Assembly: GCA_030615435.1 (NCBI GenBank)
Contig: JAUWZH010000001.1
Location: 1 to 31,493, forward strand
Length of the DNA: 31,493 nt
Direction: 5' to 3'
Source: Candidatus Brocadiaceae bacterium
GTDB lineage: Bacteria; Planctomycetota; Brocadiia; SM23-32
In this document: piece after piece, positions 6,908 to 15,845 of the stretch
Layout: every line of letters starts with the position of its first letter
How positions within the stretch are numbered: position 1 is the stretch's first letter
The notes under the pieces: generated by a model
Told to the model about the DNA's origin: nothing
What the model saw: only the letters and a program-made list of their open reading frames with translations
Databases searched by the model: none
Program-made: the position numbers and the translations under genes

Positions 6908-7684
6908 GTGAATGAACGCCACCGACACGGCAGGCGGCCTGCGTGGCGGCGTGAGCTGCACGGCATCTACGTCATTGCCAAGAAGGATGCGATGATCTAT
7001 TACGTGCAGCCGCCGGTATTGATCTTCGGCGTGCTGTTTCCCATTTTCGTTTTCCTGGCCTTCGTCGTGGGCCGGGACGTGGCGCCGGAGACGGTTGTGC
7101 CCGGGATGCTGGCCATGGCGCTGTTTTTCACGGCCTCTGCGATGGGGCCGCTCGTGACGCCCTGGGAGCGAAGGGCGAGGACCTACGAACGCCTCATCTC
7201 CAGTCCAGTCTCTCAGTTGTCGCTCATCCTGGGGGACGTGCTGGCAGGAGCGTGTTTCGGTGTGGTGCTCTCGCTGCTGCCGCTGGCTTTGGGCTGGGGC
7301 CTTACCGGCGCATCGCTGTCCAGGCCCGTGTTGCTGCCCGGGGCCATCGCGCTTTCTGCGCTGTGCTTCGCCGCGCTTGGCTCCCTTCTTTCGGCCCCGC
7401 CGACAGACAACCCGTCGCAGGTGATGATGCTGTCCAATCTCGTACGACTTCCCCTTATTTTCATCAGCGGCGTCTTCGTGCCGCTCGCTGAGATGCCCGC
7501 CTGGAGCCGGCCGTTGGTCCCCCTCTCTCCCCTTTCATACTGCACGGACATGGTGCGGGCGGCCTTCGGAACACAGAGCTACTTTCCTCTGTGGCTCGAC
7601 CCGCTGATGCTCGCCGCCTTCACCGGGGCATTTCTCGTGGTCGGCCTGTTCTTCCACCGGCGGGCCCGCGCGAAGGCCCTCTGA
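6908..7684 (+). CDS. ABC-2 type transporter permease
   Basis: About six hydrophobic segments, WERRARTYERLISSPVS, LIFISGVFVPLAEMPAWSRPLVPLSPLSY; follows the ATPase. Confidence 0.9.
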   Translation: MNERHRHGRRPAWRRELHGIYVIAKKDAMIYYVQPPVLIFGVLFPIFVFLAFVVGRDVAPETVVPGMLAMALFFTASAMGPLVTPWERRARTYERLISSPVSQLSLILGDVLAGACFGVVLSLLPLALGWGLTGASLSRPVLLPGAIALSALCFAALGSLLSAPPTDNPSQVMMLSNLVRLPLIFISGVFVPLAEMPAWSRPLVPLSPLSYCTDMVRAAFGTQSYFPLWLDPLMLAAFTGAFLVVGLFFHRRARAKAL

Positions 7685-7759
7685 GCGAGCAGCGCGGGCC
7701 AGGGCGAGAAGAATGCTTGCGGCGCGGCGGCTGCCGGACAAGTGGCCCTCCGGCCCAAT

Positions 7760-8066
7760 GTGGCCGCCTTGAACGGCAACCGTGGCTTCGCCGTAGGGGT
7801 CGTATTTAATCTTCTCGTCGGTGTCACCACTGGAATCGGTTACAGCCACTACGTTCCAGTTTGCCTGCTGACAGTAGAAGTGGCGGCTCCGATCCGCCGC
7901 CGTCTACACAGTCACCATCATCGTCCGTATCCTTGTCAAATATGAGGACCTCGTCAATGTAGATGCCGCCGTAGACGTACTGCCTGCGGGCCTCCCACTT
8001 GTCGTCCTCTGCGCCCTCGCCGTTGGTGTCCCACTCCCTCTCTTCGAGCACCTGCCAGCCATCGCA
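7760..8066 (-). pseudogene. Rhs core remnant, truncated at both ends, with a +1 frameshift
   Basis: Colinear with 10226-10528 (DGWQVLEERE...TVAVQGGH). Extra C at 7889-7890 (GGCGGCTCCGATCC vs GGCGGCTCGATCC in the intact copies). Confidence 0.85.
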
Positions 8067-8234
8067 AACGCATACGACACCCGCAGTAGCTGTTCCGCCC
8101 AGTTGCCCGGTGTGGCACCCCCGATACCACGAAAGTTGGGGTCCTTCCCACGCTCGCATCTTACCGCCGCGCAAAGGCCCCCGGAACACCACCTGTGTAG
8201 TCTCTTCTGAGAACTCGGAATTAGGGAGTGAGCG

Positions 8235-9326
8235 TCATCGCAAGGGTTGACCCCGGGGATGAAGACCCACCCTCTGCTGAAGCCATGCGTAGAGGGGCTG
8301 ACTCTGAGCCTTCCCGAAGTGGAGGAGACCCGTCCCGTGCTTTTTCACAAACTCAATGTGGACCACCCGGTCGTTCTGTAGGCAGAAAAGGTACTCTATC
8401 TTTCTGCCGCTCTGAAGCTGCACGACCACATAGAAGTAGCGCCGACTGGCTATGGGCCTCGATGGCTCTGCAGTTTGCAGCGCAGAGACAAACCTTCTCA
8501 GCTCCTCCTGCCCCGAGATTTGGTCTACGACGCTATTGGCACGGTACCAATCTTCATACAAAGTGACCGTCCTTATCGACGCCGCCGACAGCAGTTCAAT
8601 TGCCGTGTACATCTGCTCTTCAAGGGCACGAGACTGTACGGATGATATCCTGTCCTCCATGAGCATCCTGCCAAGCATAAACGTGATTACCGCGAGAGAA
8701 GCCAACATGACAGCCAAGGAAACCACGATGCTAGTAGTACGCCACGACTTCTTCGTTGTCGCCCTTCCGGAATTCGCATCAGCCTGCGCGGTTGGGCGTG
8801 GGCTGGCTGCTCGGTCAGAGGGCTTCTGCTCCGCAACGGAGAGCATGGCCCCTTTGACCCGATCGCTGCCCAGGTACCTTAGCACGAACCCCAACGGGAC
8901 ACCGATGATGGCGGCATTCAGAAGGGCCCCCAGCACGAAAGGCAAGAGGAATTCCGATGCCGGCCCAGAACCAGAGCCCAAGCCCACCGCAATGCCGATC
9001 AGCTGGAATGCCGCAAAACCAATCACAGCGGCGAACGCCAGGGCCGTCAAGATCCGAAGAACCTTGCGAGCCCATTCGCTGAGCTGCAAGAGCTTCCAGC
9101 CGGATATCAGAGCCAGGACGCCCACAGCGCACAACGTCATCGCGATAATGCCAGAGCGCCCCAGAGCAAACGCTTGGCCGTCTGTTGGTGAAACGCCGGA
9201 ATTGGTCTGGCGTATCAGCAGCAGCATGTAGGCCCCCATGCCGGACCCGGCGCACAACAGCGCCCCAACCACAATCCAGAACCAACCAATAACAGTGACA
9301 CACGTCGGACGCTTGTCCCCAGGCAT
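8235..9326 (-). CDS. Membrane protein (about 4 TM + linker + TM + soluble domain), putative immunity/cargo after Rhs module 3
   Basis: ATG at 9326 with SD GAGGAGAGG; N-terminal RPTCVTVIGWFWIV and multiple hydrophobic helices; 68 nt after the Rhs stop. Confidence 0.6.
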   Translation of the reverse strand: MPGDKRPTCVTVIGWFWIVVGALLCAGSGMGAYMLLLIRQTNSGVSPTDGQAFALGRSGIIAMTLCAVGVLALISGWKLLQLSEWARKVLRILTALAFAAVIGFAAFQLIGIAVGLGSGSGPASEFLLPFVLGALLNAAIIGVPLGFVLRYLGSDRVKGAMLSVAEQKPSDRAASPRPTAQADANSGRATTKKSWRTTSIVVSLAVMLASLAVITFMLGRMLMEDRISSVQSRALEEQMYTAIELLSAASIRTVTLYEDWYRANSVVDQISGQEELRRFVSALQTAEPSRPIASRRYFYVVVQLQSGRKIEYLFCLQNDRVVHIEFVKKHGTGLLHFGKAQSQPLYAWLQQRVGLHPRGQPLR

Positions 9327-9394
9327 AATTCCTCTCCTCGGCAACCGTCACTCTATTTCAAGTCATGCCAGCTGGTCCAGGGCACGGAAACTCC

Positions 9395-10990
9395 CTACTC
9401 CTGAGCATCGCATGTGCCTATGATATCGTCATCCATGATCTCGTACTTACACACCAATAGTCCCACAGGCAGAGACACACCGACGTAACCACCCCCACCC
9501 GTAACCCGCTCTTCGGCTGGGGTGAATATTCCGATGAAGCCCGAGACACCCGCGAAACCAAGTCCGGCAGACCACTCAAAGAAGAAACCTTTGTACGCTT
9601 TAGGACAGTTCTTGCCAGTGATGTTCCCCAAAGGATGTGCACTCCACACTATTCCAGCCGCTACCCCTTGGCAGGTCTTTTGCAGGTTTACACGGTGCCT
9701 GCAGTTATTCTCATCGCAGCAATACATCTTGATAATCTTTGAAGACCAGCGGCCGCCATCCGAGAGGAACGGCAGCGTGATACCACCCTCAAGCTGAATG
9801 TCCCATCCGCCATAGTAGGAAATGAAACCCGAGTATCCCGCGCCGACTTCTTGCCAGGTTGCTCGACCAGGAAGCCGGCCTGCAAAGATCGGGTCTGCCA
9901 GCTTGGCCAGTTCCAGGTCGATGCGCCGGCCAATGCGTCTGTCGAGTGCCCTGCCTTGCCGCCAAGCCCACTTTGCTCCCCGCCCGGCTCTTTGTGCTCC
10001 CCGCCAAGTTTTGCGCCAGAAGGGCTCCCAACCAAAAGGATCCGAGTAGTATGTCGGGCAACCGTCCACGTATTCATATAGGCTCAGGGCTTGCGCCCAG
10101 CCGATCGGATCCCGTTGCAGGAACCTGCCCAGGACGGGGGTGTAAACGCGATTGCGGAAGTAATACAAGTCAACTTCTGAGTCCCAGCGGCGGCCCTGGA
10201 AGAGGTAGGGGTTGCCGGTGGCGGAGTGGCCGCCTTGGACCGTGACGGTGGCTTCGCCGTAAGAGTCATACTTGATCTTCTCGTCGGTGTCTCCGGAACT
10301 ATCAGTAACTGCAATGACGTTCCAGTTTGCCTGCTGACAGTAGAAGTGGCGGCTCGATCCGCCCCCATCCGTGCAGTAACCGTCGTCGTCCGTATCCTTG
10401 TCGAATATGAGGACCTCATCAATGTATATGCCGCCGTAAACATCCTGCCTTCGAGGCTCCCACTGGTCGTCTTCTGCGCCCTCTCCGATGGTGTCCCATT
10501 CCCTCTCCTCGAGCACCTGCCAGGCGTCGTAGAGGTATATCACGTCCGTGCCTGTGGCGAGGTCTTTCTTCACCCTTCGATTCAGGCCGTCGTAGTAGTA
10601 CTCCACCACAGTTGACCATGCAGGCGTCCCCTCGCCGTAGTCGTCCGAGTGCTCCACCTTGATGAGCCTGTTGCGGTAATCATAGTGGAAGCGGTCGGCC
10701 TTGTTGGTCGGATCGGTCCTGTCGGGCAGGATATACAGATTCCCGCTCTTGCTCGCGCCCTCGCCCCAGTCCAGGTTGAACGATCCAACGCCGCCCTGCG
10801 GGTCAAGCGCCGTGATCTCGTTCACGGTGTTATGCGTGCGCGTGTCGTAGGGCGTGTCATCCACCCTGTTCGTCTTGCTGACAATAGCGTCCCAGTTCCC
10901 GATCACCTCGAGCGTCCAGTGCTGTTCCCTGGCCGGCGTCCCCGTGATGGCGTCTTGCACCTCGTTGAGATCGCTTACCGTACGGCACAA
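9395..10990 (-). CDS. Orphan Rhs module 3: partial YD-repeat core + repeat-associated core + 210-aa Cys/Gly-rich tip
   Basis: YDYRNRLIKV, YYYDGLNRRVKK, NPYLFQGRRWD, YYFRNRVYTPVLGRFLQRDPIG and DPFGW. No SD-supported start, so N-terminally truncated. Tip is 9395-10027. Confidence 0.85.
   Translation of the reverse strand: MCRTVSDLNEVQDAITGTPAREQHWTLEVIGNWDAIVSKTNRVDDTPYDTRTHNTVNEITALDPQGGVGSFNLDWGEGASKSGNLYILPDRTDPTNKADRFHYDYRNRLIKVEHSDDYGEGTPAWSTVVEYYYDGLNRRVKKDLATGTDVIYLYDAWQVLEEREWDTIGEGAEDDQWEPRRQDVYGGIYIDEVLIFDKDTDDDGYCTDGGGSSRHFYCQQANWNVIAVTDSSGDTDEKIKYDSYGEATVTVQGGHSATGNPYLFQGRRWDSEVDLYYFRNRVYTPVLGRFLQRDPIGWAQALSLYEYVDGCPTYYSDPFGWEPFWRKTWRGAQRAGRGAKWAWRQGRALDRRIGRRIDLELAKLADPIFAGRLPGRATWQEVGAGYSGFISYYGGWDIQLEGGITLPFLSDGGRWSSKIIKMYCCDENNCRHRVNLQKTCQGVAAGIVWSAHPLGNITGKNCPKAYKGFFFEWSAGLGFAGVSGFIGIFTPAEERVTGGGGYVGVSLPVGLLVCKYEIMDDDIIGTCDAQE
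10107..10684. repeat. Rhs core block, gap-free direct repeat of 13363-13940
   Basis: Constant offset of 3256 nt at both ends of the block, with high nucleotide similarity by eye. Confidence 0.85.
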
Positions 10991-11024: not shown

Positions 11025-11507
11025 CTAATCAGTCCGCCCCATGTGTTTGTACGTGGGCGAAGCGATGACAGGTCCTTTTCCCGGCACTATGATCTCCAAC
11101 TCATTCGACCTCGCGCCCGCCCATTTGAAGTACAGCTTGTGTTTTCCCGGCCCGAGCCAGTCTCGTATCTCATGATCCGTCATCCCAAATGCTATGAAGT
11201 TCTCTGCCGGAGCAGGGGGAATGTGTCTCGCAAGAATGCGCTTCAGTGAGACCTCCGGTTTGGGACCAGGTAATCGTGCTCTTTCAGCATCTATATAGAA
11301 CTCAAACTCTTTGACGCCAAACGGATGCACCAAAATCGTCCGCTTGCCAGAAATAGAAATCTTGATAAGGAGCTCGCCTAAGTCCGTTCTTTCTGCCCTG
11401 ACGCCCAAAAATAAATTGACGTTTTTCTTAATCCCTGCCTGACTGACAACGCAGCCGTTGAGAACTAACACGAGCGCACAAGCCGTGATTTGTAGATATT
11501 TCCTCAC
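11025..11507 (-). CDS. Putative lipoprotein (160 aa), candidate immunity/cargo
   Basis: GTG at 11507 with SD AAGGAGG (11525-11519). MRKYLQITACALVLVLNGC is a basic N-region, h-region and lipobox. Confidence 0.65.
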   Translation of the reverse strand: MRKYLQITACALVLVLNGCVVSQAGIKKNVNLFLGVRAERTDLGELLIKISISGKRTILVHPFGVKEFEFYIDAERARLPGPKPEVSLKRILARHIPPAPAENFIAFGMTDHEIRDWLGPGKHKLYFKWAGARSNELEIIVPGKGPVIASPTYKHMGRTD

Positions 11508-11596: not shown

Positions 11597-12586
11597 TCAA
11601 TAACGCACTTTGCACTGTGGGTTAGTCTTCTCGAACTCTCCGATCTGTTCCTCCGTTATGAAATAGCAGCCCCTTATGTCGAGCTCCCTTAGTTTCGGCA
11701 TGTTGCCAAGGACTCCTATTTCCTTCACCCTAGGGCAGCCCGCGACGCACAGGTATTCGAGCTCCTTAAGACGGGCCAGCGGCCGTAGGTCTTCTACATC
11801 CTTACAGCGCATTAGATCCAAGTAATTGAGGTTCTTCAGAGTGGACAACGGCTCCAAATTTGATGTGCCGCTACACTCCCTCAGGGTTAAAAATCTTAGT
11901 TCGACAAGGCTCGCAAGCGATGAAATGTCTGCAATATTCCGACAGCGCCAAAGTTTGAGAGCCTTGAGATGCGTAAAGCCTTCAAGCGGCTGCAAGGTAC
12001 TGATCCTGCGAGGTTTTCCACGAATACTCTCGTCGAAGTAGATGGTGAGTATCTTGGGACTCCAATACCTTTCGCAGATTGCCGCGAATTGGCCTTCGTC
12101 CAAATTTCGGAAAGGGGAGAAACCTATGACCTCTGCGTTACGACCCCTACCCAACATCAGCTCAATGCAATTGTTAGCGTCTCTCTCCCCAAAAACAAGA
12201 GGTTGAGACTCTTCCCCAGAGAAGACATAGGGCCAGTCCTTTGCCCCACCGGACAAGAACCCCCTCCTCACACGCACGACTAAGGCGTCACCAGGCCCGA
12301 CCCTTAGCACCTTCGTAGTGGCAGGCGGAAAGAACGTTCCGTCGAAGGCTTCCTCGCCAGTCATCAAATTCTGTGCGAGGACAAGACTTTTCATCACTAC
12401 TTCTGATCTTTCAAGTTCCTCGTTAGACTTTGAAGCTAGCCTTTGGGGGACCGATCCTCCTGTCGCTGACTTGGCGTTTGGCCCTGACCTTCGCGTGTAG
12501 TTGCATGAAACCAAGCAGATAATGGTGCTGAGTGCCAAAATGGAAAGTGCCTGCGCAGCGTACGGACGGTTCATATTCCCAGACAT
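11597..12586 (-). CDS. Leucine-rich-repeat lipoprotein, candidate immunity/cargo after Rhs module 2
   Basis: Signal ending ICLVSC. About five to six 23-aa LRRs (LKALKLWRCRNIADISSL, LRFLTLRECSGTSNLEPL, LNYLDLMRCKDVEDLRPL, LRELDIRGC) and a cap ending NPQCKVRY. Confidence 0.8.
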   Translation of the reverse strand: MSGNMNRPYAAQALSILALSTIICLVSCNYTRRSGPNAKSATGGSVPQRLASKSNEELERSEVVMKSLVLAQNLMTGEEAFDGTFFPPATTKVLRVGPGDALVVRVRRGFLSGGAKDWPYVFSGEESQPLVFGERDANNCIELMLGRGRNAEVIGFSPFRNLDEGQFAAICERYWSPKILTIYFDESIRGKPRRISTLQPLEGFTHLKALKLWRCRNIADISSLASLVELRFLTLRECSGTSNLEPLSTLKNLNYLDLMRCKDVEDLRPLARLKELEYLCVAGCPRVKEIGVLGNMPKLRELDIRGCYFITEEQIGEFEKTNPQCKVRY

Positions 12587-12806
12587 GTGCGCTCTCCAGA
12601 GAGTGCCAGGTTCATATTCAATTATCGCTCAGCAGCCACAAGAGCTGCTTCGTATTCTTCGTCTGGCACACGCATGCTGGCCGGGGAGTGCACAGGCCAG
12701 CCCAATTGCCTTAGAAGCGCGGTTCTGTCCCTGAGTCCAAAGGCACTCTGCTGCCGCATCACCCATCCTAGGCGCTCCATATAAACAACCCGCCTCGGTC
12801 CCATGG

Positions 12807-14096
12807 CTACCAAGATTTCTCCACCCGGCAGTATGGAGACTCCGTTTCGGCACCTCCACCGAAGATCCCAATTATCCCTCGTACCCTGCGCCCAATCCAA
12901 CGACCTGGCCCGGCGGCAGCACCCACTATACCACGGCCGATGCCAATTGGAATATCTATTAGCCAATGCACAGGTGGGCGATAAATTGAGTATCTGCAGT
13001 AACCATTAGCGTCCGAACCCACGCCTGGACTTACCAAATCTAGCGACCCACGCTCGCCTATCAGCTGATTGTTCTTGTCGTAACAACATTGCTGACACCA
13101 CTCGAACCATCCGCATCCCAATTCTCTGTAACATGTCCCTCTGTGGAGGATGCTCCCCCACCGCACCCCCCAGAACCCCTGACCCTCCTCGCACCAATGC
13201 GGAGGCCCGTTTGCAGCGTAATCCTCCACGCTCTCGGGGTAATTCTCTGTCGGGTCGGGTTCGGTGTCCGGGCAGGATGCTTGCAAACCGAATGGATCCA
13301 CGTAATAAGTGGGAACAGACAGCCCATACTGGTACAGGTTCGTAACTATCACACTTATAATGGGATCACGCTGCAGGAAACGGCCGAGGACGGGGGAATA
13401 GACGCGGTTGCGGAAGTAATACAAATCAACTTCATCATCCCAGCGGCGGCTTTGGAAGAGGTAAGGGTTGCCGGTGGCGGAGTGGCCGCCCTGGACTGTG
13501 ACGGTGGCTTCGCCGTACGAGTCATACTTAATCTTCTCGTCGGTGTCTCCACTGGAATCGGTTACGGCCACTACGTTCCAGTTGGCCTGCTGACAGTAGA
13601 AGTGGCGGCTCGATCCGCCGCCGTCTACACAGTCGCCGTCGTCGTCCGTATCCTTGTCAAAGATCAGGACCTCGTCTATGTATGTGGCGCCGTAGACGTA
13701 CTGCCGCCTGGGTTCCCACTTGTCGTCCTCCGCCCCCTCGCCGTTGGTGTCCCACTCCCTCTCCTCAAGCACCTGCCAGCCGTCATAGAGGTAGATCACA
13801 TCGGTGCCTGTGGCGAGGTCCTTTTTCACGCGGCGGTTGAGGCCGTCGTAGTAATACTCCACCACAGTTGACCACGAAGGCGTCCCCTCGCCGTAATCGT
13901 CCGAGTGCTCCACCTTGATGAGGCGGTTGCTATAGTCGCACACATACTTGTGGTCCCTGTCTGCAGAACCGTCCTGGGTGAGGCTCCCGGCTGCATCATA
14001 GGTCAGCGAGATCTGCGTCTCGCCCATCCAACCCGTAGCATATGGAATCCACCGAGGTGGGTTCCTGCACAATCCTGCCCACGACAACGCCATCAC
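12807..14096 (-). CDS. Orphan Rhs module 2: partial core + 158-aa Cys-rich tip with AMOP-like motif
   Basis: LTYDAAGSL, DYSNRLIKV, NPYLFQSRRWD, LGRFLQRDPI and DPFGL. Tip is 12807-13283 and contains QQCCYDKNNQLI. No credible start. Confidence 0.85.
   Translation of the reverse strand: MMALSWAGLCRNPPRWIPYATGWMGETQISLTYDAAGSLTQDGSADRDHKYVCDYSNRLIKVEHSDDYGEGTPSWSTVVEYYYDGLNRRVKKDLATGTDVIYLYDGWQVLEEREWDTNGEGAEDDKWEPRRQYVYGATYIDEVLIFDKDTDDDGDCVDGGGSSRHFYCQQANWNVVAVTDSSGDTDEKIKYDSYGEATVTVQGGHSATGNPYLFQSRRWDDEVDLYYFRNRVYSPVLGRFLQRDPIISVIVTNLYQYGLSVPTYYVDPFGLQASCPDTEPDPTENYPESVEDYAANGPPHWCEEGQGFWGVRWGSILHRGTCYRELGCGWFEWCQQCCYDKNNQLIGERGSLDLVSPGVGSDANGYCRYSIYRPPVHWLIDIPIGIGRGIVGAAAGPGRWIGRRVRGIIGIFGGGAETESPYCRVEKSW
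13363..13940. repeat. Rhs core block, direct repeat of 10107-10684
   Basis: Gap-free alignment to the module 3 core. Confidence 0.85.
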
Positions 14097-14235: not shown

Positions 14236-14574
14236 TCATTCGTCTCGCCGCAACAGCCTCTGCCATCGCGTCAGCCCATAAACTGGCGTCAGGATAAGGA
14301 ATAACTCCAGCCCGACCGAGACGGTTCCCACCTTTGCAGCCGTTCGCTGAAGCTTGTGGGCGACATGGAGGCTGAACAGCCCTAGGGACAAGAACCACAA
14401 AGGGATCAGAAGTCCTATTTCGAGGTCGCTCGCCACGTCAAGCCAGCCGCTCAACTGCAGCCGGGGCTTTCCCGTCGTTGATAAGTACACGGCCAAAGCT
14501 GCGATCTGAAGCAGGCAGATAATGCTCATGAAATTGTGAAAAACCAGGTAAACCGTTAGAATCCGCTTCAGCAA
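14236..14574 (-). CDS. Small membrane protein (112 aa, about 3 TM), candidate immunity/cargo
   Basis: TTG at 14574 with GAGGA overlapping the upstream stop; in frame with ORF 14236-14688; hydrophobic segments. Confidence 0.45.
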   Translation of the reverse strand: MLKRILTVYLVFHNFMSIICLLQIAALAVYLSTTGKPRLQLSGWLDVASDLEIGLLIPLWFLSLGLFSLHVAHKLQRTAAKVGTVSVGLELFLILTPVYGLTRWQRLLRRDE

Positions 14575-14588
14575 ATGTCTTCTGTTCC

Positions 14589-14984
14589 TCAAGGGTATTC
14601 CTCTCTGCCTATATTCTCGGGCGGGCTCCTGCCGGACACAGAGTCGCGCATGCGCGTGAACCAATAAAGGGGGCAACCGAAGGGCCACACGAAGACTATC
14701 ACGGCATACCAGAGGGCCTTCTTCCAGCCGTGATACCGCCTGTCAACGCACGAACAACACCACACAATGCAGCCGAAGATTAGCACCATCAGTACGAACG
14801 CGGCAAAAAAACCGGGAGGCACACGCTTCCAGGGCGTCTCTTGAGCCACGAGGAAGCCACCCGACGAGGTAACTGCGTTCCAGATAACCCATGCGCTTGC
14901 CAGGGGCCAAAGTGCGAACAAAACATCCAGCAGTATACAGCCGAAATGCCGGAGCCTACTCTGCGCCTTAGCGTGCCGCGACAT
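14589..14984 (-). CDS. Small membrane protein with PLDc_N-like C-terminal motif, candidate immunity after Rhs module 1
   Basis: Purine-rich SD region 30 nt after the Rhs stop; about 3-4 TM; KKALWYAVIVFVWPFGCPLYWF resembles the PLDc_N hairpin. Confidence 0.6.
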   Translation of the reverse strand: MSRHAKAQSRLRHFGCILLDVLFALWPLASAWVIWNAVTSSGGFLVAQETPWKRVPPGFFAAFVLMVLIFGCIVWCCSCVDRRYHGWKKALWYAVIVFVWPFGCPLYWFTRMRDSVSGRSPPENIGREEYP

Positions 14985-15014: not shown

Positions 15015-15845
15015 CTAGAGTGCTTCCCATGGTTTCGCGGGCTCAGGTGTATCGACCCACTCCGGTGTTTCGAGGTGCAAGCTCTTTTTCGTGCATAGCC
15101 CCTTATCCAGTATTTGTTTCTCTGTCCACATGAGAGACTCCAGCTCGTGCTTCTTGTAACACGCATAGAGCTTGGTTTTCGAAGCTCCTACCAGTTCGAA
15201 GTTAAAGCCGAGGCCTGAACCCGCTCCACCGGTGCCTCCCGAAGTACTGGCCCCGATAGTGACGATCAGGCTCAGACTTACGTTCGGTCCTTCGAGGGAC
15301 CAACCCCTCAACGAGTCTGAGTCCTCGGCCCCCGAAACACTCCCCAGGACAAAGCCTCCCTTACCGCCTAGGCCTGGCCCCGCCATCCAAGTGGTCACCG
15401 ACCCGCGGCAGGTCGGCACCCGGTAGATGTCCTGCAGGATGCAGCCAAGCTCTCCGCAGTCGTATTCGTAGTACCCGATCCTCTTCCTCTGCTTGCAGGT
15501 GAAAGTTCCGACTGCCTTGGTGTAGCTGCCCACGAAGAAGCTACCGCTGCTAAACGTGCCGCTGAACCACCACTTTCCCCCACGGCACTCTACCAGTCCA
15601 AAGGGGTCTACGTTGAACGTCGGCCGTGACCCTGAGTACACATACAGGTTCTTCTCGGTCTTAACATGGCCTGCCGGGTCCCTCTGCAAGAACCTCCCCA
15701 GCACGGGGCTGTAAGCGCGGTGGCGGAAGTAGTAGAGGCTGACTTCTGAGTCCCAGCGGCGGCCCTGGAAGAGGTAGGGGTTGCCGGTGGCGGAGTGGCC
15801 GTCCTCGTTGTAGGTCATAGTCACCTCGCCGGTGCACGAGGCCAA
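15015..15845 (-). CDS. Orphan Rhs module 1: short core stub + 192-aa Cys/Gly-rich tip
   Basis: GHSATGNPYLFQGRRWD, LYYFRHRAYSPVLGRFLQRDP and DPFGL; tip is 15015-15593. Confidence 0.85.
   Translation of the reverse strand: MASCTGEVTMTYNEDGHSATGNPYLFQGRRWDSEVSLYYFRHRAYSPVLGRFLQRDPAGHVKTEKNLYVYSGSRPTFNVDPFGLVECRGGKWWFSGTFSSGSFFVGSYTKAVGTFTCKQRKRIGYYEYDCGELGCILQDIYRVPTCRGSVTTWMAGPGLGGKGGFVLGSVSGAEDSDSLRGWSLEGPNVSLSLIVTIGASTSGGTGGAGSGLGFNFELVGASKTKLYACYKKHELESLMWTEKQILDKGLCTKKSLHLETPEWVDTPEPAKPWEAL
15742..15801. repeat. 60-bp block identical to 10173-10232
   Basis: ACTTCTGAGTCCCAGCGGCGGCCCTGGAAGAGGTAGGGGTTGCCGGTGGCGGAGTGGCCG is present at both positions. Confidence 0.9.

Follow-up and report, generated by a model that had tools for sequence, protein, structure and literature searches.

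A shortened AMOP-like domain as the putative toxin tip of an orphan Rhs cassette in a Planctomycetota genome

One of the questions raised by the 31,493-nucleotide stretch of Candidatus Brocadiaceae DNA analyzed here (hereafter the window) is why a bacterial Rhs cassette should end in what looks like an animal extracellular module. The open reading frame (ORF) at 12807-14096 on the minus strand encodes, behind an Rhs core, a cysteine-rich tip resembling the AMOP domain, the defining module of the isthmins, MUC4 and SUSD2, which are studied in angiogenesis, metabolism and cancer. AMOP has stayed functionally obscure, also after the crystal structure of isthmin-1 (ISM1) became available in 2025 (PMC12000326). 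An earlier note on this DNA had proposed kinship between the tip and the animal domain, as opposed to a coincidental CCYD similarity, and this proposal is borne out by profile comparisons and by predicted structures whose only structural match is ISM1; we regard the window tip as very probably homologous to AMOP. The reading that we favor, with a probability of about 0.6, is that the tip is an envelope-acting, disulfide-bonded toxin domain of the AMOP fold, carried in a silent spare cassette and matched by an exported lipoprotein that confers immunity. The source is a metagenome-assembled genome (MAG) of 2.63 Mb in 370 contigs, which is 85% complete. Its homoserine dehydrogenase shares 79% identity with the enzyme of a MAG labeled Brocadiaceae and about 48% with the enzymes of other Planctomycetota.

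The ORF encodes a protein of 429 amino acids (P0001), with a GTG start and a TAG stop at 12807-12809. As the earlier note had claimed, the tip stands in an Rhs context: residues 191-271 (13284-13526) match the Rhs repeat-associated core model TIGR03696 (Rhs_assc_core, NCBIfam) with 61.8 bits against a cut-off of 32.5 and end in the cleavage-type motif PTYYVDPFGL (residues 262-271), directly after which the variable tip begins. The core block ending in the DPFG motif is invariant in an alignment of four cassettes. About 190 residues of shell are left in P0001, in which a full YD-repeat shell was not detected (YD_repeat_2x 14.2 bits, below its cut-off of 15.8; RHS_repeat E 0.55); stops close the reading frame upstream of the GTG, and homology to the sister cassettes begins at about residue 54. 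Because of this residual shell and the closed upstream frame, P0001 is to be seen as an orphan Rhs C-terminal cassette, truncated at its 5' end, and a complete toxin gene it is not.

Behind the core, the 158-residue tip comprises about 115 cysteine-rich residues, the AMOP-like part (residues 272-387; 12936-13283), followed by about 45 Gly/Arg-rich residues (388-429; 12810-12935). This tail carries many GxxxG-like repeats, is predicted to be disordered (predicted local distance difference test score, pLDDT, of 29-40) and is unconserved in alignments. Conservation is highest in the domain core between His318 and Asp381 (12954-13150; pLDDT 85-93), the stretch that had first drawn attention. The translation does contain the peptide strings quoted at that time (...LHRGTCYRE...WCQQCCYDKNNQLIGERGSLDLVSP...VHWLID...), and the elements H-x3-C-x-R, QQCCYD-x3-QLI, GS-x2-LVS and H-x3-D occur in order on the minus strand; a plus-strand reading of 12807-13283 is full of stops and was rejected. 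One detail of the AMOP pattern with which these elements had been compared is wrong: the histidine at H-x3-5-C-x-R does not hold for human ISM1, which has a lysine there. The 429-codon frame is uninterrupted, and none of the family-invariant residues is missing. The window tip matched no toxin, nuclease, deaminase or ADP-ribosyltransferase family of Pfam or NCBIfam (hmmscan).

A phmmer search with the tip over 1.84 billion representative proteins returned just seven relatives (E 1.8e-5 to 8e-4), all of which sit behind Rhs cores or DPxG motifs; one of them, P0004, is a 951-amino acid Rhs fragment, and a region search with P0004 returned P0004 alone. Invariant in the tip-family alignment are H51, C55, R57, C70, C71, Y72, D86, P90, G93, G98, C100, H110 and D114, in a tip numbering whose residue 1 is P0001 residue 268. 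The Pfam AMOP model PF03782 matches five of the eight family members, P0005 with 26.5 bits against a gathering score of 25 and P0002, P0004, P0007 and P0008 below that score with 19.7-22.9 bits; a genome-wide six-frame search of the MAG with the same model gave no match. When the tip-family profile was compared with the PDB, human ISM1 (9C6T) was the sole match at E<=10 (E 0.02). The single tip sequence gave noise only in a phmmer search of the PDB and no usable match in the ESM Atlas.

The word-indexed search with the tip-family profile retrieved 124 proteins, most of them Bacteroidota proteins of about 160-190 amino acids with a signal peptide and PF03782, together with Rhs-tipped canonical AMOPs such as P0126 of Pirellulaceae. 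An alignment of 34 canonical bacterial AMOPs, none of them from the window's own subfamily, matches ISM1 (9c6t) over the whole domain with E 2.4e-22, and the tip family matches the canonical bacterial AMOPs over 95 columns with a probability of 99.45% and E 4.2e-22 (hhalign). Scored alone against the hidden Markov model (HMM) of the 34 sequences, the window tip reaches 29.8 bits (E 2.4e-11 for one sequence), compared with 7.0 bits for the best of 2000 composition-preserving shuffles. Sequence intermediates at two loci (L012 and L014) mix canonical and window-type features. Within a 400-genome sample of the phylum, the tip was found in 7 by its own profile and in 2-3 by PF03782. A maximum-likelihood tree of 134 bacterial AMOP-like domains sets the small secreted proteins apart from the Rhs tips (Shimodaira-Hasegawa-like approximate likelihood ratio, SH-aLRT, 77); because the Rhs tips are on very long branches, we read neither branching order nor origin from this tree.

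Two template-free AlphaFold2 models of the tip, made from inputs of 11 and 50 sequences, share the same topology of five strands followed by a long helix. The 11-sequence model has a pLDDT of 66 overall and of 70-92 over tip residues 1-120, and the 50-sequence model a pLDDT of 76.9 with a predicted template modeling score (pTM) of 0.73. The comparison with isthmin-1 by Foldseek that the earlier note had called for went in its favor: chains of 9c6t rank 1-2 in the PDB (probability 0.87-0.98, all later matches <=0.12) and the top six Swiss-Prot models are all isthmins. Among the AFDB clusters, the top match is an "AMOP domain-containing protein" (E 5.6e-5, template modeling (TM) score 0.51, root-mean-square deviation (rmsd) 2.9), below which come isthmin, mesh and other AMOP entries. 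In an unbiased VIA-align comparison with 48,161 chains, 9c6t_B gave Z 6.0 and 6.5 for the two models, the next best chain reaching 2.3, with 103-104 residues superposed at rmsd 4.5 and 4.1. In the models, the tip has the central antiparallel half-barrel and flanking helices of the AMOP fold, a half streptavidin-like barrel that the authors of the ISM1 structure regard as a display platform (PMC12000326).

Four strictly conserved AMOP disulfides are present in ISM1, C1-C8, C3-C6, C4-C9 and C5-C7 (PMC12000326). The tip family conserves six cysteines, at 275, 302, 322, 337, 338 and 367, among which Cys275, Cys322, Cys337 and Cys338 correspond to C3, C5, C6 and C7; by homology to C3-C6 and C5-C7, the disulfides Cys275-Cys337 and Cys322-Cys338 would be retained. 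Cys302 and Cys367 are an extra conserved pair, and the N-terminal cysteine and the second cysteine of the CPC doublet are absent. Since only C3, C5, C6 and C7 are kept, the C-terminal segment is gone and a new pair has been added, we take the tip to be a truncated, divergent branch of AMOP. It lacks two formal features of AMOP membership, a score above the Pfam threshold and the eight cysteines. Conservation of polar residues is strict: His318, Arg324, Cys337, Asp353 and His377 do not vary among 50 bacterial AMOP-like sequences, and Asp381 hardly does. The equivalents of His318 and Asp353 in ISM1 are lysine and asparagine, and ISM1 keeps the arginine of CxR and the histidine and aspartate of H-x3-D. 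It is because the two invariant bacterial residues are those replaced in the animal protein that we favor a functional polar site.

No AMOP domain is known to have enzymatic activity, and function is therefore read from genomic context. At 12 of 14 loci the gene after the AMOP-like tip encodes a lipoprotein, a signal-peptide protein or a small multi-transmembrane (multi-TM) protein, the last kind following related tips at L012, L013, L015, L016, L017 and L001. These exported partners and the disulfide-dependent fold suggest that the toxin would act in the envelope of its target. The first gene after the tip in the window (11597-12586, minus strand) encodes a leucine-rich repeat (LRR) lipoprotein of 329 amino acids, with an N-terminal hydrophobic segment, a signal peptide with a lipobox-like ...LVSC site and a match to Pfam LRR_4 (E 7.9e-15); the GC content of the gene is 0.513, against 0.65 in the flanks. 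It is possibly an immunity protein or an inserted gene; kinship with a 335-amino acid partner at another locus (L004) was considered and rejected, there being no similarity. Next on the same strand lies a gene for a small lipoprotein of about 160 amino acids (11025-11507; signal ...LVLVLNGC; GC 0.496), whose likely start is the GTG at 11507 behind AAGGAGG and which is related to the gene overlapping the stop of the sister tip P0003 at L006 (BLASTP E 5e-12). From this recurrence we infer that the small lipoprotein is the best immunity candidate. Both lipoprotein genes are intact, with good start contexts. A 60-codon ORF at 12622-12804 (minus strand), three bases past the TAG of the toxin and in another frame, has no family match and no hydrophobic segment and is probably spurious.

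The genes after two canonical Rhs-AMOP tips, that of P0126 in Pirellulaceae SH501 (L005 9133-9777) and one in another MAG (L008 3827-4717), are homologous (E 2.5e-8) and may represent a candidate immunity family for full-length AMOP tips. Their products are unannotated, and one has a signal-like N-terminus, which the P0126 partner lacks. The AMOP-tip locus of Pirellulaceae is surrounded by IS21 and other transposase genes and has a PT-HINT protein nearby (L005 16896-17107 and 10402-12704), which suggests a polymorphic-toxin island. In Bacteroidota, the genes for secreted AMOPs of about 170 amino acids adjoin genes (L001 1-177; L009 4027-4992; L010 5486-8413) whose products have mutually homologous C-termini, with 55-100 related residues (BLASTP E 1e-6 to 5e-15) and the motif VNDxxxGNNSGxY. 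We take this C-terminus to resemble that of the PA-IL/LecA lectin, a likeness which would suggest that the partner of bacterial AMOPs is glycan-related.

The surroundings of P0001 identify it as an ordinary orphan Rhs cassette for this genome. Between 7.5 and 15.9 kb the minus strand is an array of 5'-truncated Rhs stubs: a broken stub with Rhs core in two short frames (7535-8192), a stub with a cysteine-rich tip (9395-10990) followed by a multi-TM protein (8235-9344), and, upstream of P0001, another stub with a cysteine-rich tip (15015-15845) followed by genes of multi-TM type at 14589-14984 and 14236-14688. A Pfam match was lacking for all three. The core common to the stubs is 70-88% identical by tblastn and 67-78% in the alignment; the cores end at DPFG(L/W), after which the tips are unrelated. 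This core occurs at 13 places in the MAG, only one of which carries the AMOP-like tip, and copies 88-96% identical lie on at least five contigs. With a GC content of 0.50-0.58, the cassette and the two downstream genes lie below their flanks (0.65), which lends support to a possible foreign origin. Judged by sequence, the anatomy is that of an orphan rhs-CT array. On contig C72, an orphan stub with the same core and a different cysteine-rich tip precedes a lipoprotein-like ankyrin-repeat protein (L101 935-2254 and 2404-3999), which fits the pattern of exported partners. The genuine Rhs protein of 1052 amino acids on contig C162 has a core just 36% identical. An open frame of 1604-1665 amino acids on contig C142 (L099 2560-7374) was considered as a parent Rhs and rejected as an antisense high-GC artefact, since a genuine Rhs stub with a cysteine-rich tip is found solely in its last ~330 residues. 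The artefact is a caution for calls based on ORF length in this genome.

We envisage the ORF at 12807-14096 as a spare cartridge that lies silent within a polymorphic-toxin system of the Rhs type. The approximately 220 residues of shell end and core that it keeps would allow homologous recombination to graft the cassette onto an expressed rhs gene. The putative toxin domain that follows the self-cleavage-type motif DPFGL is about 115 residues long. It is a shortened and divergent member of the AMOP fold, which has kept the core of the half-barrel together with the strands bearing CxR and QQCCYD and the helix bearing H-x3-D. Once released it would act in the oxidizing envelope of the target bacterium, probably in the periplasm, where a site formed by His318, Arg324, Asp353, His377 and the near-invariant Asp381 would engage a target that belongs to the envelope or is associated with a membrane. 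Its toxicity could be that of a hydrolase-type enzyme, with catalysis at this site, or that of a tight binder. Protection of the producer would come from the exported lipoprotein encoded at 11025-11507 and perhaps also from the LRR lipoprotein encoded at 11597-12586.

Several observations weigh against this picture. The direct hmmscan comparison with PF03782, one of the checks suggested for the AMOP claim, found no match to the window tip even at E<=10. The tip keeps four of the eight AMOP cysteines, and the C-terminal third, with the C4-C9 partner and the RPPNxGxxC segment, is missing. The structural comparisons, made with predicted models, give moderate scores (Z 6-6.5, TM score 0.41-0.51, Foldseek E ~0.03). 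The arginine of CxR and the histidine and aspartate of H-x3-D may be structural, since the non-catalytic ISM1 has them too, and enzymatic precedent within AMOP is lacking, as said above. The LRR gene intervenes between the tip and the recurring lipoprotein, BLAST finds no kinship among most of the downstream partners, so that the immunity candidates are not one family, and the complex predicted for the tip and the small lipoprotein scored 0.00, which speaks neither for nor against binding. An expressed full-length parent with this core was not found in the 85%-complete MAG; it may simply be unassembled, given the incompleteness and the fragmentation of the assembly. The N-terminal 1000 or more shell residues and the trafficking domain are absent from P0001.

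Some of these observations would also be explained if the cassette were a decaying remnant with no present function, the tip being unexpressed and its motifs reflecting recent descent from a functional gene. The missing shell and trafficking domain, the visibly broken neighboring stub at 7535-8192 and the lack of a parent gene all suit such decay. Orphan cassettes in other bacteria are functional reservoirs, however, and here the 429-codon frame is intact with each family-invariant residue in place, the downstream lipoprotein genes are intact with good start contexts, and the parent may have escaped assembly, all of which makes decay improbable. That the AMOP resemblance is a coincidental convergence of a cysteine-rich motif can be regarded as effectively refuted: the failure of the Pfam model and the Foldseek E of only ~0.03 would be in keeping with chance, but not the hhalign E, the distance between the tip and its shuffles, the uniqueness of ISM1 among the chains compared with both models, or the intermediate sequences that bridge the window-type and canonical forms.

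Where and how the tip acts is a separate matter. Many Rhs tips are cytoplasmic enzymes, and His, Cys and Asp are also classical zinc ligands, so that the tip could be a nuclease, deaminase, ADP-ribosyltransferase or similar enzyme of the target cytoplasm whose cysteines bind metal instead of forming disulfides; the partner of the canonical tip P0126 (L005 9133-9777), which has no signal peptide, would agree with this. We consider a cytoplasmic toxin very improbable, as the downstream product is exported or membrane-bound at 12 of 14 loci, none of these enzyme families was matched in Pfam or NCBIfam, and the homologous cysteines are disulfides in the ISM1 crystal structure (PMC12000326). An AMOP-fold toxin without enzymatic activity is rather unlikely, though less so: it would bind or perturb a membrane or envelope component, for example by insertion through the Gly-rich tail or by sequestration of a lipid-linked precursor, and the invariant His, Arg and Asp would be structural. 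Small multi-TM partners, such as those after the related tips at the six loci named above, are typical of membrane-active toxins, as with colicin-type and type VI secretion system membrane toxins. The GxxxG-like repeats of the window tail also favor such a toxin, as does the retention of Arg, His and Asp in ISM1, a protein without known catalysis (PMC12000326). Yet the tail is unconserved and predicted to be disordered, and lipoproteins, the kind of partner found in the window and at L006, more typically go with periplasmic enzyme toxins. Moreover, His51 and Asp86 (tip numbering) are invariant in the 50 bacterial sequences and replaced in ISM1, as would be expected if functional residues had been lost on domestication.

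Carried further, the envelope-toxin reading leads to a tentative, and on balance doubtful, scenario for the origin of AMOP. The domain may have begun as a bacterial envelope-acting toxin domain with a His/Asp active site, of which the Rhs tips and the small secreted Bacteroidota proteins would be present-day representatives; early animals would have captured the scaffold, lost the His and Asp and reused it for adhesion and signaling, much as in the case of the teneurin toxin domain. If this were true, the bacterial enzymes would show what ligand or substrate AMOP had ancestrally.

No paper that connects AMOP with Rhs, with polymorphic toxins or with toxins of bacteria came up in full-text searches, and bacterial AMOPs exist only as automatic annotations. 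To these the window adds a shorter, Pfam-invisible AMOP subfamily with a recurring lipoprotein partner. What makes the tip interesting is its kinship with the animal domain and the handle that this offers on AMOP biochemistry. If AMOP does have interbacterial-toxin relatives with immunity partners and strictly conserved polar residues, its biochemistry would become tractable in E. coli through toxicity assays, suppressor and immunity binding experiments, and point mutants, and it would be a further case of an animal extracellular domain common to polymorphic toxins. For the toxin field, the tip represents a Pfam-invisible family with exported candidate immunity partners in Planctomycetota and other phyla.

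Compared with metazoan AMOP domains (PF03782/SMART; ISM1 9C6T, ISM2, MUC4, SUSD2 and insect mesh), the tip is predicted to have the same five-stranded half barrel and helix, with the landmarks C-x-R, Q-[QH]-C-C-Y, L-I, [DN]-x-[IV]-S and H-x3-D-V-x-P in common, and with cysteines C3, C5, C6 and C7 shared with ISM1. Both would be domains of extracellular or oxidizing compartments. Unlike the metazoan domains, the tip is without the second cysteine of CPC, the N-terminal cysteine, WxxC and RPPNxGxxC, so that C1-C8 and C4-C9 are absent; it has the invariant His318 and Asp353 at the positions taken by Lys and Asn in ISM1, and the new pair 302/367. The tip is an Rhs toxin end that the Pfam model misses, whereas the metazoan domains stand in adhesion and signaling proteins.

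The canonical bacterial AMOPs are closer to the tip. They include Rhs-tipped proteins (P0126, a 368-amino acid "RHS repeat-associated core domain-containing protein" of Pirellulaceae bacterium SH501, and P0122 and P0125) and secreted signal-peptide proteins of about 170 amino acids from Spirosoma, Dyadobacter, Runella, Mucilaginibacter and Saprospiraceae (Bacteroidota). They are homologous to the tip and have the same invariant His, Arg, Asp and His; some are likewise Rhs tips in Planctomycetota, and intermediates such as that at L012 exist. In contrast to the window type, which is about 50 residues shorter, missed by Pfam and accompanied by different partner proteins, they are full-length, recognized by Pfam and match ISM1 end to end.

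The array resembles the orphan rhs-CT/rhsI arrays of Enterobacteriaceae (Salmonella, Serratia and E. coli). There as in the window, 5'-truncated stubs with a near-identical core stand in tandem, each with a distinct tip and its own small downstream gene, and the GC content is below that of the host genome. The window differs in its Planctomycetota MAG host, in partners that are all exported or membrane proteins, in having no parent in sight and in a tip family new to the toxin literature. A textbook parallel for the link between the kingdoms is provided by the teneurins, whose C-terminal region (YD shell plus Tox-GHH) was reportedly described by Zhang et al. in 2012 as an extracellular protein of animals derived from a bacterial polymorphic toxin. 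Teneurins and AMOP proteins alike have an animal cell-surface or secreted module with homologs at bacterial YD/Rhs toxin tips, and polar residues that appear to be key differ in the animal copy. In the teneurins the whole YD shell came along, whereas in the case of AMOP it is the tip domain alone that is common to both kingdoms.

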